From a virus (lineage: Duplodnaviria; Caudoviricetes), in IMG/VR virus record IMGVR_UViG_3300036768_000367, positions 1,057 to 65,056 of that record: a DNA stretch of 64,000 nt; one strand, given 5' to 3'. The notes under the pieces were generated by a model. It did not search any database and was not told the DNA's origin. It saw only the letters and a program-made list of their open reading frames with translations. Of the stretch, positions 787-63,589 are shown one piece after another. The translations under genes were made by a program, and so were the position numbers. The stretch's first letter is position 1. Every line of letters starts with the position of its first letter.

Positions 787-1452
787 ATGGCTTTATTTCC
801 AGCTAATCCAGGATTATATCCACTAGGCTTGTTCGACGTATCAGATGCAGTTTCGCTATCTAGCATCACTGGCGGCGAGGTAGGTACTCTTACCACGCGC
901 GCTCGCACGAACAGTGCTTCAGAAAAAGCAGCTGCCGACGTTCTTGATGGTTATACTTATGCAACCCCAGGCACTCGTCCAGCCGTGACCTTGGCAACAA
1001 CCAATGCGCAGTTCCCACTCTTCCTTTTGGATGACGGTACTGCTGGTTATGGTTCTTTCTTCGGTCAAGTCATTGGCGCTCCAGTCGGTCTCAGCACCAC
1101 TGGTAGCGACCTTGGCCCACACAGCGCCGCTGCATCAGGCAAAGTAACTGCCTGGGACAAGCCAGGTCTATATGTTGTCACACTCGATTCATGCGCGTCT
1201 GACTTCGTATCTTCCTTGCTTGCAGGTACCTCTGGTCTTGCACCAGGTGCCGTACTAGGCTTTAACGCATCTTCAAAGCTTGCGCACGCTGCTTGCTCTG
1301 GTGCCGTTGTTGGTTCAGGTGTTGGTCATTTCGTAGAGTTTGAGGCTTCTCCATCTCTCGTTACCACGCCAGGACACTTGGTTGGTGCTGCACAACAGTT
1401 TACCAGAGTCAAGGTGCAGTTCCACGCTGGCTTGGGTATAAGAACCTTATAA
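787..1452 (+). CDS. Putative head decoration / capsid-associated structural protein
   Basis: 221 aa, Gly/Ala/Thr-rich; strong RBS (CAGGAG); high-expression codon usage like the capsid gene; same promoter motif and MALF start as the capsid gene; followed by a terminator. Confidence 0.6.
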   Translation: MALFPANPGLYPLGLFDVSDAVSLSSITGGEVGTLTTRARTNSASEKAAADVLDGYTYATPGTRPAVTLATTNAQFPLFLLDDGTAGYGSFFGQVIGAPVGLSTTGSDLGPHSAAASGKVTAWDKPGLYVVTLDSCASDFVSSLLAGTSGLAPGAVLGFNASSKLAHAACSGAVVGSGVGHFVEFEASPSLVTTPGHLVGAAQQFTRVKVQFHAGLGIRTL

Positions 1453-1495
1453 GGTCTTTGATAAAGCTCATTCTGAGTTTTATGATATAATTCTA

Positions 1496-1528
1496 AATAA
1501 CGCGGGCGTAGCCCGCGTTATTATTTTT
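1496..1528 (+). terminator. Intrinsic terminator
   Basis: AATAACGCGGGC-GTA-GCCCGCGTTATT hairpin followed by ATTTTT. Confidence 0.8.
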
Positions 1529-1539
1529 AGTAGCATATT

Positions 1540-1683
1540 ATGAAAGTCACAAATGATGTTATTGGTATTTATAAAATCACATGTTTAAAAAATAAAAATT
1601 ATATATTGGACAAGCATATGAAGTTTGGATGCGTCTTGGAGATCATAATCGTTTATTAAAAATAATAAAGCATCCTAATTACT
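1540..1683 (+). pseudogene. GIY-YIG endonuclease N-terminal remnant
   Basis: MKVTNDVIGIYKITCLKNK, frameshift, then YIGQAYEVWMRLGDHNRLLKNNKHPNY; closely resembles the ORF at 63676; truncated. Confidence 0.7.
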
Positions 1684-60178: not shown

Positions 60179-60187
60179 TAATAGTTT

Positions 60188-60964
60188 ATGACTCGTGGTA
60201 CCTCCTATTTAGTTTATTCTGATATTTATAATCTGGATTATATTGTCCAGCATAGCGGTATTATGTTTGGCCGCAATATACTAGTAGATACATTAAGAGA
60301 GGTTTTTGCAAAAGATAAGGAATATCGTTATTTAAAAGATTCCTTTGGCTTTCCAAAAACACCATCCCATGAAAATTTAGACGAAGATGCTGGTATAGTA
60401 GATGACTCTACTACCAGATTATTTATTGGCGGCGCATTCAGATATGACATATCTTATTTACCAGCTATTACGGTAAGACAAACTGGCTCAAGCTATAAGC
60501 CGATATCTTTTAATTCTAATATGTGGGTACTTGAGTACGAAACCCAAAAAATAGTAGATGGCTATGGAAACGTCACTTATAATGAAGTTCCATCGTCTTA
60601 TCAATTTGCTGGGGCCTGGGAACAAAGTTTTGAAGTTAAAGTAACATCAAAAAGTCTAGAAGACACAATCCATATAGCAGATATAGTCATGATTTCCCTA
60701 CAAGGCACCTATAGGTTGCCATTGCAGCAGATCGGATTGTTTATAAAGCAGGTAAGGGCATCTGGAGAATCCATCGAGACTTTTGGTGCCAATGACCCAT
60801 TATTTACAATCAGTATAACTTTAGATACATATTCAGAATGGAGACGATCAATACCAATATCTAATTTAGTCGAGCGAGTGTCATTGTGCTTGGCAGTCGA
60901 TATTCAAAATACAGATGTTCCTGCCAACGATCTGTTAATAAAATATAATCTAGGCCAGTATTAA
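60188..60964 (+). CDS. Putative tail terminator / tail completion protein
   Basis: Position directly upstream of the sheath; YLPAITV and WEQSFEVKV.SKS..D...IAD pattern. Confidence 0.5.
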   Translation: MTRGTSYLVYSDIYNLDYIVQHSGIMFGRNILVDTLREVFAKDKEYRYLKDSFGFPKTPSHENLDEDAGIVDDSTTRLFIGGAFRYDISYLPAITVRQTGSSYKPISFNSNMWVLEYETQKIVDGYGNVTYNEVPSSYQFAGAWEQSFEVKVTSKSLEDTIHIADIVMISLQGTYRLPLQQIGLFIKQVRASGESIETFGANDPLFTISITLDTYSEWRRSIPISNLVERVSLCLAVDIQNTDVPANDLLIKYNLGQY

Positions 60965-61042
60965 CTAAAGGTATGTATATTCAAATCTACTAATTTTAAT
61001 TGTAGATGGTGTTAGAATAATAGTCTCAGAGGAGCTTCCAGT

Positions 61043-63589
61043 ATGGCCAATAATATTCCAGGTATACTTCGTAGAGTACAACCAAATGTATTCACCAGAG
61101 TTCGTACAAGACAGCGTGTAAATGTAGCGCCTGGTGGTGCTAGAATCGCTTGCATCATTGGTGAAGGTGAAACAGAAGAAACGTTAGTTGTAGCCGCCAT
61201 AGGAGGTGGTAAAGACGGTGTTAATGCTGACTTCTCTGGCAGTGATAACCCAGATGGTCGTCACTTTGCTCTTAGTACTGGAAATCTCGTTTCTAACCGC
61301 GTTTCTATTTTAAAGAACGGTGTTCCTCTCACTGTTTTAGAAGGTACTATTGGTACAGATTCATTCGACTCTCGCTATGATTGCAGAGTTGATATTGTAA
61401 ATGGCCGTCTAGAACTACAAAGATCTTATTTAGTAGACTTTGGTGGTAATGGTGTAACTACTCGCTATTGGAAATCTGGCCTTAACAATGTAGGCAATGG
61501 CACTCCAACAGTCACGGCGTCTTCATTGGTAAGTGCAAGTGCTCCAGCAGAAGTTTGGACAGCTCGTGTTATTAGTATTGTAAAAGATGGTTATGGCAAC
61601 CCAATTCCTGGTGAAGCCGTAATTTCAGTTTCTGGCTCAGTATCTGGTGTCATTAAAGACGCAAATGGTAACCCAATCCGTTGGAAGTCTGATGGCGTTG
61701 CTGTAAGTAATGGTATTTTAAACATTTCATTCGCAGAAGGCGTCGTTCCCTATCAGGTTGGTGATAAATTCACCATCCAGGTTGCCTCTGGTGTACTAGC
61801 CAAAAATGATGAGCTTGTAGCCAAGTACATTGCAGAAGCAGACTTGAATGATCCAGAATTATTTTTAACTCCAGCAGATCTTTTCAGTAAGCATGGACAA
61901 CCAAGCGAATCTAACAATCTTTCCCTCGGTGCTGCTATGGCATTTGAAAATGGCGCTCCAGCTGTTTTTGCAATTCAAGCCAAGCCTTCAGTACCACGTA
62001 AAACCTGTGTAACTTTGCTAGAAGCAGATAATCCACTGACCGTTGGTGTTGAGGGTGCTAGCGGCAACGAAAATTTGGGTGACTGCATTTTCCACTTACC
62101 GCTGGGTGCATTACCAGATGTTGATACCAATATAGCAGTATACATTACAAGTGCCGATGGCAGCGAAGAGCAGATCCTTTTGAATAAGGTAGCCTTCTAT
62201 AATAGCTCATGGTCCACAACAGCTTCTGCATACACCAATTTCGTAACTGGCGCTTTCTCCGAAAGCTATACTGTATTTAATGCAGCTCAAGTAGAACAAG
62301 ATGGTACTGATGGATACTTTACCTCTACTGGTGTAAGCACAGCCTCTTTTACATCCCCAAGCTTGCAGCTTTCAGTAGATCGTGTTGATTTAAGTGAGAG
62401 TGATATCGGCAAAAAAGTTCTTAAGATTGTAAACGGCTCAGTAGTGGCTACTTATAATATTGCAGATGTTGGCGATGGCTATGGCAATACAAACAAAGCC
62501 TCTCTAACCCTAGTATCTGGTACTAATGCTACTGGTGCTGCCAGCTGGCAAGTAGTTGATCCAAATGATGTTGGTGCATACTTTGCATTAACTGATGACG
62601 TAGTAAATAATTATTTGACTGTTGGCAAAGGTCTCAAGATCTGCTACGTAGATACAAAAGACGCAGACTTCTTCGACACAAATTGGGCAGCAGCTTTTGA
62701 GGCAGCCGAATTGATCGACTGCCAATTCATAGTGCCACTTCCAAAATCAACTATCAGCAACATCTTTGCTGTAGGCAAGTCTCACGTAGAAGAGCAATCA
62801 AATATTTTGAATGCACATGAACGCATCCTGTTAATAGGCGCAATCAAGGGCCTAACTCCAGATAATTTGGTTGGTCGTGAAGATGCAGCCGTTGAGGATC
62901 TTGGTATTCTCGAAGGTATTCAGGGTGACGATCCAGAGGAAGTTTTGGGTGGTAACATTGAAGACTTGGCTAATTACAGCGTTTCTGACGCTTTTGGTGA
63001 CAGCTTCCGTGTAGTATATATGGCTCCAGATGAGATTATAAGAAACATCAATGGCACCAATACATCTCTGCACGGATTCTATCAAGCAGCTGCTTTGGCA
63101 GGGTTCTTGAGTGGTCAAACTAATATTGCTGAGCCTCCAACATTTAGAACCTTGTCTGGTTACAGCATTCCTCGCACCAAGACCTACAGACCATTCACTT
63201 TAGATGAGTTGGCTGATGCAGGTGTATTGATTACGCAACCTGTAGCTGGTGGTGGACGCATGTTGCATGGTCTAACGACAACGCAATCCAATGCTCCAGA
63301 GGAAGAAGAGATTTCTATTGTCGGAATTAGAGATCAAGTTGCTCGCTTGTTAAGAAATTCATTGCGTCCATTCGTGGGCAGAGTAAACAGCCCAACGCTA
63401 ATTAGTGAGATTAGCCAAGGCGTGGCCAAGATTCTAGCATCACTAGTATCGCAAGGTCTATTAACAAGCTTTGGAAACATCACTGTATCTAGAGATTCTG
63501 TTGAACCAAGACAGTTAAACATTGCTGCACAGATATCACCTGCTGCACCAATAAATTGGATCTACATCGATTTGGAGGTTTCGATCTAA
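61043..63589 (+). CDS. Contractile tail sheath protein
   Basis: GAGGAG RBS; N-terminal P.VF.RV..IIGEG; AMAFENGA..V; C-terminal AAALAG, LADAGV, GLTT...EEISIVGIRDQV..LR..FVG, I.P..PINWI.I. Confidence 0.9.
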   Translation: MANNIPGILRRVQPNVFTRVRTRQRVNVAPGGARIACIIGEGETEETLVVAAIGGGKDGVNADFSGSDNPDGRHFALSTGNLVSNRVSILKNGVPLTVLEGTIGTDSFDSRYDCRVDIVNGRLELQRSYLVDFGGNGVTTRYWKSGLNNVGNGTPTVTASSLVSASAPAEVWTARVISIVKDGYGNPIPGEAVISVSGSVSGVIKDANGNPIRWKSDGVAVSNGILNISFAEGVVPYQVGDKFTIQVASGVLAKNDELVAKYIAEADLNDPELFLTPADLFSKHGQPSESNNLSLGAAMAFENGAPAVFAIQAKPSVPRKTCVTLLEADNPLTVGVEGASGNENLGDCIFHLPLGALPDVDTNIAVYITSADGSEEQILLNKVAFYNSSWSTTASAYTNFVTGAFSESYTVFNAAQVEQDGTDGYFTSTGVSTASFTSPSLQLSVDRVDLSESDIGKKVLKIVNGSVVATYNIADVGDGYGNTNKASLTLVSGTNATGAASWQVVDPNDVGAYFALTDDVVNNYLTVGKGLKICYVDTKDADFFDTNWAAAFEAAELIDCQFIVPLPKSTISNIFAVGKSHVEEQSNILNAHERILLIGAIKGLTPDNLVGREDAAVEDLGILEGIQGDDPEEVLGGNIEDLANYSVSDAFGDSFRVVYMAPDEIIRNINGTNTSLHGFYQAAALAGFLSGQTNIAEPPTFRTLSGYSIPRTKTYRPFTLDELADAGVLITQPVAGGGRMLHGLTTTQSNAPEEEEISIVGIRDQVARLLRNSLRPFVGRVNSPTLISEISQGVAKILASLVSQGLLTSFGNITVSRDSVEPRQLNIAAQISPAAPINWIYIDLEVSI

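Follow-up and report, generated by a model that had tools for sequence, protein, structure and literature searches.

Glycosylation is directed by short three-residue sequons in several known systems, among them N-X-S/T, the bacterial D/E-X-N-X-S/T and the D-(S/T)-(A/I/L/V/M/T) motif of O-glycosylation in Bacteroidota. Tyrosine O-glycosylation is found on the S-layer proteins of Paenibacillus and Thermoanaerobacter, and the fibres of T4-type phages carry HxH metal-binding motifs on their three-fold axis. Mycobacteriophage virions are glycosylated by phage-encoded glycosyltransferases (Freeman et al., 2023, as cited in the available text of PMC12619734), and according to the same text the glycans sit on the C-termini of capsid and tail-tube subunits. 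This text also reports core glycosyltransferases for the 'Moraphage' lineage of large aquatic phages, all members of which carry heat-shock (DnaK/DnaJ) genes. The O-glycosylation of Bacteroidota is the subject of PMC8698959. Here, the tripeptide Asp-Gly-Tyr (DGY) is described, which recurs 70 times in the predicted proteins of a 64,000-nucleotide stretch of viral DNA (the window), corresponding to bases 1057-65056 of the linear virus record IMGVR_UViG_3300036768_000367 of 65,056 bp. CheckV estimates this record to be 17% complete, so that it represents only part of a huge-phage genome. The DGY feature is real and strong, and it has not been described before; no report of it was found in the literature on the motif and on virion, tyrosine O- and jumbo-phage glycosylation, supplements aside.

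All long open reading frames (ORFs) of the window, including every ORF given with coordinates below, lie on the plus strand. The 52 plus-strand ORFs encode 19,604 amino acids (aa), and DGY occurs in 20 of them, which together make up 14,170 aa. The per-ORF counts listed in an earlier note on this DNA were all reproduced, with the same ORFs, the same numbers and the same sum of 70. From composition 3.6 occurrences are expected, close to the value of about 3 given in that note. A first-order Markov model, which is already inflated by the DG and GY dipeptides that DGY itself contributes, predicts 11.6 (Poisson tail for 70 against 11.55, 2e-31), and 300 doublet-preserving shuffles gave a mean of 13.3, with a standard deviation of 3.4 and a maximum of 22, so that the excess survives a dipeptide-aware null model. 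DGY was the sole recurrent tripeptide in large excess (z = 17), the next-ranked tripeptides being singletons or of low count. Its ratio of observed to expected occurrences was 19 in the window and 12 in the syntenic record G001, and all other DxY, xGY and DGx tripeptides stayed at or below 3.5, with a mild excess of DGT (1.8 to 2.1). This corresponds to 3.6 DGY per 1000 aa; 70 of 170 DG dipeptides continue with Y (DGY/DG ratio 0.41) and 70 of 115 GY dipeptides are preceded by D. Neighbouring tripeptides were scarce, with 3 NGY, 1 EGY, 1 DGW and 3 DGF, the last in agreement with the earlier estimate. The preference for DGY over both DGF and NGY indicates that the hydroxyl and the carboxylate both matter. 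In the flanks from -6 to +6 no position exceeded an about 3-fold preference, which bears out that the flanks are unrelated and that the motif is a strict, flank-independent D-G-Y.

Of the occurrences of the corresponding nucleotide pattern GAYGGNTAY, 70 fall in the coding frame; one more is in frame 1 and another on the minus strand. The pattern is realised by 15 different nonamers. Selection therefore acts on the peptide and not on a DNA repeat, as the earlier note had claimed. The motif is also unevenly distributed along the window. The virion module begins at 13097 and closes with the tail sheath gene at 61043-63589; 69 of the 70 DGY lie in ORFs from 13097 on (16,505 aa) and one lies in the ORFs ending before 13087 (3,099 aa). 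Among the ORFs of at least 150 aa from 13097 on, 18 of 26 have DGY, and the eight without it are the patatin-like and GIY-YIG-like ORFs and ORFs 29300, 35637, 37887, 46179, 46704 and 59615. The claimed bias towards virion proteins could thus be observed as a restriction to part of the virion module. The absences claimed for individual proteins were confirmed by count: no DGY is present in the zinc-ribbon ORF (2838-3641), the SNF2 helicase (7091-8980), the patatin ORF (22617-23420; Pfam E = 4e-32) or the GIY-YIG-like ORF (24151-24912; weak Pfam match), and the major-capsid-like ORF (3852-4871), which has a capsid-like fold and is 72% identical to its G001 counterpart, contains no DG at all.

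Fifty-three relatives of the sheath were identified in IMG/VR, and records syntenic with the window were examined by whole-record scans and ORF counts. Compared with the expectation from composition, DGY was observed 70 times against 3.7 in G000, 161 against 13.8 in G001 (206 kb), 95 against 5.4 in G007 (96 kb), 36 against 2.3 in G006 (46 kb), 17 against 1.6 in G003 (37 kb), 9 against 2.0 in G005 (39 kb) and 56 against 17.0 in G002 (371 kb, complete, 51% guanine-cytosine (GC) content), where the excess clusters in the structural bins at 240-280 kb. No excess was seen in the 33 kb scanned of G004. The relatives also showed a gene-strand bias of the motif, and reversed-pattern controls were at background; in G016, 24 occurrences follow the direction of the genes and 1 is on the opposite strand. 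Related phages thus carry the same excess in syntenic huge-phage records, and the DGY excess is a family trait and not a quirk of the window's contig. In G001, a 3634-aa protein with LamG and Ig-like Big_5 repeats holds 57 DGY, about 25 of its Big_5-like repeats having two each; a 3811-aa fibre holds 33, which punctuate repeats every 27 or 34 residues, and in a 275-aa protein 7 DGY account for all its DG and all its GY.

The closest relative of the window is L220, a 338-kb metagenome contig with a 72% identical sheath, and no close relative was found among INPHARED phages. Gene order is common to all syntenic records, G002 having a GC content of 51% and G000, G001, G003, G005, G006 and G007 of 38-43%; this GC contrast suggests that the host has changed within the family. 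That these phages are the published 'moraphages', as far as the latter are described in the available text of PMC12619734, was unsupported, since HSP70 was not matched in five relatives, three of them complete or near-complete.

Ordinary phage fibre proteins, a comparison proposed in the earlier note, did not show the excess. Control loci of other viruses were picked for one DGYVGIGT fibre motif, and this ascertained copy was removed from each locus. Of 91 loci returned, 80 were analysed and 77 kept, as L068, L083 and L113 were dropped as DGY-rich relatives. The 77 control fibre loci contained 42 DGY in 219,266 aa (0.19 per 1000 aa; DGY/DG 0.028), and ordinary fibre composition as the source of the excess is thereby ruled out.

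The host folds of the motif are unrelated, as had been claimed, and include sheath insertions, Ig-like Big_5 repeats, acidic linkers, N-terminal anchors and apparent coiled-coil breaks, the last read from repeat spacing. The 848-aa tail sheath (61043..63589) was identified by a weak Phage_sheath_1C match under the Pfam cut-off, by tblastn matches to annotated phage sheaths and by Foldseek matches of its AlphaFold model to solved phage sheaths. This model, built from an 18-row alignment (predicted local distance difference test (pLDDT) 76), allowed the placement of three DGY sites, all in the sheath; for ORF 38394-40430, a 2-row alignment gave only an unusable model (pLDDT 28). The sheath sites, at residues 182, 423 and 478, lie outside the conserved C-terminal domain that matches other sheaths. 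Inserted domains of this kind point outward in T4-type sheaths. In the model, site 182 falls in a loop and site 478 at a hairpin turn.

At sites 423 and 478, all 7 relatives with a sheath identity of at least 50% have DGY, with varying flanks, and none of the 37 other aligned homologs does, these having DGx, NGx or a deletion there; site 182 is common to G006 only. Similarly, the single site of the 258-aa ORF upstream of the sheath (60188..60964) is kept in 6 of 7 orthologs by 5 different nonamers, with synonymous variation in all three codons. In ORFs 47715 and 52374, most DGY columns hold the motif in no more than two of six orthologs, and the places of DGY differ by lineage and are sometimes shifted by a few residues. 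Such a mixture of sites under purifying selection and continual gains elsewhere resembles, at the level of aligned sequences, the turnover of a sequon. In addition, one part of the module practically lacks the motif. The G001 block from the sheath to the gp25-like baseplate wedge contains 0 DGY among 38 DG, compared with 157 DGY among 378 DG in the rest of the G001 virion module (Fisher p = 6e-9). The homologous post-sheath blocks of G007, G005, G006, G002 and G003 contain 1 DGY among 127 DG, which gives 1 among 165 for the six records together. By gene order this block would encode the tube, the tape measure and the inner baseplate.

Pfam and PHROGs scans of 30 window ORFs yielded only helicase, patatin, GIY-YIG, zinc ribbon, capsid-like fold, Kelch, sheath and fibre families, which confirmed the earlier statement that no modifying enzyme is evident in the window. 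This would be explained by the contig ending just past the sheath, about 30 kb before the place at which the relatives have a conserved GT4 glycosyltransferase locus. In the relatives, the sheath is followed by the DGY-free block, the gp25-like wedge, three DGY-bearing baseplate giants (approximately 1075, 2185 and 940 aa long) and, directly after them, a GT4 gene of 360-403 aa. The GT4 proteins pass the Pfam cut-offs for Glycos_transf_1 and Glyco_trans_1_4, and the G001 and L197 copies also that for Glyco_transf_4. A co-occurring glycosyltransferase, which the earlier note had proposed to look for, was found at this junction in each of the 12 relative records extending that far (G001, G002, G007, G016-G019 and G011-G015), the proteins of the distant G011-G015 matching the profile at E of about 1e-92. 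The records G000, G003 and G006 stop before the junction.

GT4 anchors a variable sugar-gene island of 3 to 55 kb, the far edge of which is a TubZ-like gene. The L197 island (about 3 kb) consists of two GNAT genes, an NTP-transferase-like gene and an SDR epimerase gene. The island of G002 is also about 3 kb, and no GT2 is present in the whole G002 genome, and the 27-kb island of G012 starts with five consecutive GT-B genes. The island of G001 measures 55 kb (38.7-93.7 kb, loci L060-L062) and carries eight GT2 matches in seven ORFs, two Glyphos_transf, GNATs and methyltransferases, together with the sugar-nucleotide genes NeuB (three), cytidylyltransferase (CTP_transf_3; two), DegT aminotransferase and dehydratases including a GDP-Man dehydratase. 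It is nearly without counterpart in the complete G002, where two weak, non-syntenic matches were the only ones; the first genes of this island type are common to G005, G017, G018 and G019. TubZ/PhuZ-like tubulin genes are located at the far edge at 14411-15871 in L197, 317857-319200 in G002, 37298-38728 in G001 and 199322-200770 in G012, and in L197 a UvsW-like helicase gene follows.

The complete genomes of G012 and G002 share 64 ORFs by BLASTP, of which 41 were scanned for families. Among the 25 of 71 core families listed were replication, recombination, chaperonin, sigma-factor, peptidase M16, PhoH and intein families, and Glycos_transf_1 (two members) was the sole group-transfer enzyme of a protein-modifying kind. 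Intein splicing domains were present in 5 of the 41 scanned G012 core ORFs, and LAGLIDADG and Hint domains were found as well. In G001, 127 of 172 ORFs were scanned and 25 of 67 and 25 of 39 families were listed; ORFs above 950 aa or below 90 aa, those with at least 2 DGY, those crossing a locus boundary and the sheath with its neighbour were left out. Concerning a role of the cluster in DNA glycosylation, Tet_JBP was matched in none of five relatives, a result that is uninformative since its control was matched nowhere. The ThyA/dCMP-hydroxymethylase family was matched in one of five relatives (G002), and neither the complete G012 nor the 99%-complete G013 has it; a conserved hydroxymethyl-pyrimidine DNA-glycosylation role of the glycosyltransferases is weakly, and not decisively, disfavoured.

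In the distant relatives G011-G015, with sheaths about 43% identical, DGY is only about 2-fold enriched overall, and the two giants adjoining GT4 hold acidic linkers of tandem (DGYx)n type, located equivalently in the different records. Among them are DGYSDGYSDGYDDGYDGY, DGYEDGYIDDYLDGYVDGY, DGYAQPDGYDGY, DGYEDGYQDGY, DGYDAYDAYDAYDGY and the pair VDGYAVDGYADE. In DGYDAYDAYDAYDGY, from a 2844-aa ORF of L202 (G012; residues about 1712-1726), DAY replaces DGY three times; no other clear case of a tolerated change at the middle position was seen. The sequence DGYDGYDGY occurs twice in G016, and all 24 gene-strand motifs of this record lie upstream of GT4. These tandem arrays in G011-G015 and G016 indicate that the motif predates the clade of the window. 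It would first have formed linker arrays close to the glycosyltransferase locus, and its extension to proteins throughout the virion, in the window's clade, would have come later.

Combining these results, the best explanation appears to be that peripheral virion proteins are glycosylated by the phage's own enzymes, with DGY as the sequon, GT4 as its reader and probably tyrosine as the modified residue, a sequence-derived reading that is held tentatively, as plausible without quite being probable. The sequon would be borne by the fibres, the neck, the sheath insertions and the outer baseplate of this huge-phage family, and its most likely reader would be the conserved GT4 (GT-B) encoded right after the DGY-bearing baseplate giants. 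Acting in the cytoplasm, GT4 would initiate an O-linked glycan, the acceptor probably being the tyrosine hydroxyl; the aspartate at -2 and the glycine at -1 would confer specificity and access, and the variable sugar-gene island behind GT4 would then determine which glycan is built. Tyrosine is the likely acceptor since it holds the sole hydroxyl of the motif and Y is preferred over F by 23:1. That a glycan is attached, that tyrosine accepts it, that GT4 is the reader and that the locus is present in the window's own phage we infer in each case. The recognition sequon proposed in the earlier note is partly supported: the strictness of the motif, selection on the peptide, the varied folds, the confinement to part of the virion module and the turnover of sites speak for it. 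The fuller version, in which a single GT4 reads DGY as a tyrosine O-glycosylation sequon, the island, which in G001 includes genes for the synthesis of nonulosonic acids, gives each lineage its own glycan coat on the outside of the tail and the motif originated in the (DGYx)n linkers of two giants before spreading, is possible and on the doubtful side; to our knowledge, a tyrosine O-glycosylation sequon is a kind undescribed for any virus or for the bacterial cytoplasm.

Several observations weigh against glycosylation by GT4. The putative link between GT4 and DGY is drawn from synteny and plausibility, and the window scans contained no transferase or glycosyltransferase. Matches of the GT4 profile in the PDB are generic (sucrose-phosphate synthase-like, BshA, GlgA and MshA), the protein O-GlcNAc transferase Gtf1 (4pqg) matching only at E = 0.002, and GT4 enzymes mostly act on non-protein acceptors. 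The DGY load does not follow the size of the island: L197, which belongs to the subclade of the window (best matches to G006, GC 39%), is very DGY-rich, with 16 of 28 and 6 of 12 DG continuing as DGY in two giants, and has only the mini-cassette, and G012 has five GT-B genes and yet only about 2-fold enrichment of DGY genome-wide. Sheath site 423 lies inside a long beta strand in the model, which is awkward for an enzyme acting on the folded protein. The non-virion proteins of G001 and G002 contain 9 DGY against 14.8 expected, no significant avoidance. Another reader enzyme could hide beyond the 25 of 71 core families listed, and we know of no described cytoplasmic tyrosine O-glycosylation sequon in bacteria or phages. 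A complex prediction of the G014 GT4 (9-row alignment) with a 55-residue tandem-DGY segment scored 0.01, which is no answer and counts neither way. Confidence is kept down by the generic GT4 relatives, the mismatch between load and island and the one in-strand site.

The alternative that survives best is a surface motif without any enzyme, a small element for adhesion or ligand binding in which the D-x-Y pair would bind a polysaccharide or a metal, for instance Ca2+ or Fe3+, or dock a decorating protein, with avidity; at i and i+2 such a pair could line the three-fold axis of a fibre. The tandem acidic linkers, the periodicity of 27 or 34 residues in the 3811-aa fibre of G001, the HDGY contexts in two giant proteins, the independence of the DGY load from island size and what looks like selection on the number of sites rather than on their place would all fit it, and DAY in DGYDAYDAYDAYDGY is easier to reconcile with D and Y as paired ligands than with a strict sequon. 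However, an i/i+2 pair does not need the strict middle glycine (observed/expected of 19 compared with at most 3.5), and the motif is also present in monomeric contexts such as the sheath insertion domains and the Big_5 repeats. Moreover, no partner protein or ion can be named, and the analogy to HxH is a putative one. This alternative is considered unlikely, while still carrying real weight.

Less probable by a clear distance are two further explanations, to which we give equally small chances. In the first, the modification is not a glycan but sulfation, phosphorylation or adenylylation of tyrosine, its conversion to dihydroxyphenylalanine (DOPA), a di-tyrosine cross-link, or succinimide/isoaspartate formation at Asp-Gly. 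The exactness and turnover of the motif fit such a modification equally well; no other sequence forms a succinimide as readily as Asp-Gly, and tyrosine sulfation is favoured by nearby acidic residues. Among the families listed (25 of 67 and 25 of 39 in G001, 25 of 71 in the G012/G002 core), however, no sulfotransferase, tyrosinase or tyrosine kinase was present, and succinimide chemistry leaves the preference of tyrosine over phenylalanine unexplained. A PrkA-type kinase module is encoded by G001, but has no G002 homolog in the tabulated comparison of G001 ORFs. This phage-encoded trio of PrkA kinase, SpoVR and DUF444 resembles a yeaG-yeaH-ycgB module, and in the same comparison the G001 ORFs around it have no matching G002 homolog.

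In the second, DGY is a favoured structural turn, an Asp-Gly turn with an aromatic strand starter, spread by repeat duplication or drift and read by nothing. Two of the three modelled sheath sites do lie in a hairpin turn or loop, DGT is mildly enriched, and part of the G001 excess comes from the about 25 Big_5-like repeats. NGY, DGF, DGV and DGI, equally good turns, are nevertheless at background; DGY is also found in apparent coiled-coil breaks, linkers and N-termini, has been gained independently in unrelated proteins at non-homologous positions, is not in excess in the control fibre loci and is practically missing from the post-sheath block of the same virions, although DG is present there. 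Finally, a DNA or RNA motif (methylation, restriction or regulatory), for which the recurrence of GAYGGNTAY alone could speak, is ruled out to near certainty by the frame and strand test, the 15 nonamers and the gene-strand bias in the relatives.

The remaining carriers of DGY in the window are distributed as follows. Ahead of the virion module, a 221-aa ORF (787..1452) has one DGY, kept in the orthologs of two relatives (3 of 3 sequences). At the start of the module, two DGY are present in a 459-aa ORF (13097..14476), four in a 427-aa ORF with a weak DUF2793-like fibre repeat (14532..15815), one in a 417-aa ORF (15832..17085), four in an 871-aa ORF (17082..19697), one, at residue 7, in a 579-aa tail-fibre-like ORF matching PHROG tail fiber and decoration families (19697..21436) and two in a 385-aa ORF (21451..22608). 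The 1397-aa fibre (24909..29102) holds ten, which include an N-terminal anchor motif and the contexts DGYVGxGT and DDGYDLGS..RWRDGY. The 689-aa Kelch-like ORF (30239..32308) has five DGY, four of them within the first 105 residues, and the 697-aa ORF behind it (32324..34417) also five; the latter is apparently a paralog of the former, judged from the same best-matching G001 ORF and a similar N-terminal layout of DGY. One DGY is found in an 82-aa ORF (35392..35640), three in a 295-aa ORF (36149..37036), the orthologs of which have one each, partly at shifted positions, and eight in a 678-aa ORF (38394..40430), including a tandem DGYDGY and one site kept in 4 of 4 orthologs. A 657-aa fibre (40434..42407) carries one in the common N-terminal anchor motif, a 1072-aa fibre (42417..45635) six, three of them as DGYVGIGTT, and a 177-aa ORF (45637..46170) three, all within the final 42 residues. 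Of the two largest ORFs, the 1547-aa ORF (47715..52358) has three DGY, with an HDGY site kept in 4 of 6 orthologs, and the 2414-aa ORF (52374..59618) has six, where the gains in orthologs are mostly lineage-specific. Recurrent contexts of DGY in the window are DGYVGIGTT, DDGYDLGS..RWRDGY and the N-terminal YPNxIDGYxxLP; their counterparts in other phages presumably have different residues at the DGY positions.

Three further genes of the window were noted. The patatin-like phospholipase gene (22617-23420) lies in the middle of the virion module, a location conserved in G002 (42% identity), and G001 too encodes a patatin domain; its product may be a virion-borne lipase. The GIY-YIG-like ORF (24151-24912) sits among structural genes, has no homolog in the relatives and is probably a homing endonuclease insertion. 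For ORF 11629-13086, a neighbour of the capsid-like gene, no relatives were found in IMG/VR.

If glycosylation at DGY is true, it would constitute a large post-translational code on phage particles that can be read from the genome alone, with dozens to hundreds of predictable sites per virion, and would explain what the large sugar-gene islands of huge phages are for. It would also bear on how tails are masked or tuned with respect to host defences, grazers and sticky matrices, and a three-residue tag with a matching enzyme could possibly be reused for site-specific glycosylation. Even without a glycan, the about 20-fold enrichment of one tripeptide, under selection and across folds that are unrelated, is a rule of protein evolution that calls for an explanation.

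Compared with the known systems, the mycobacteriophage system, as far as described in the text cited above, shares with the present one glycosyltransferase genes beside structural genes, here GT4 after the giants in the relatives, and a proposed glycan coat built in the cytoplasm, which here is a prediction from sequence. It differs in that glycans there are carried by capsid and tail tube, whereas here the capsid-like ORF is DGY-free, the post-sheath block in which the tube is expected practically so, and a strict tripeptide with a putative tyrosine acceptor extends over fibres, neck, sheath and outer baseplate. With the known three-residue sequons, DGY has in common a short exact motif with an acidic residue near the acceptor, gain and loss of sites and enrichment on exposed proteins. 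Those systems, however, are extracytoplasmic and use lipid-linked donors and oligosaccharyltransferases, whereas the candidate here is a soluble GT-B and the tyrosine stands two residues after the aspartate. S-layer tyrosine O-glycosylation likewise places the glycan on the tyrosine hydroxyl of a surface-array protein, as proposed here, but involves few sites per protein, is not known to have a DGY consensus and follows an extracytoplasmic lipid-carrier route. An enzymatic parallel is GtfA/Gtf1 (PDB 4pqg), also of GT4/GT-B type, which glycosylates proteins in the cytoplasm at many repeated sites that are later extended by other glycosyltransferases; its acceptors, however, are Ser/Thr in the long serine-rich repeat (SRR) tracts of adhesins, and the similarity of the phage GT4 to Gtf1 is weak and confined to the generic nucleotide-sugar domain. 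None of the compared glycosylation systems uses DGY. Like the HxH motifs of T4-type fibres, DGY offers a candidate ligand pair at i and i+2 that recurs along trimeric fibres, and unlike them it is present in non-trimeric folds as well.

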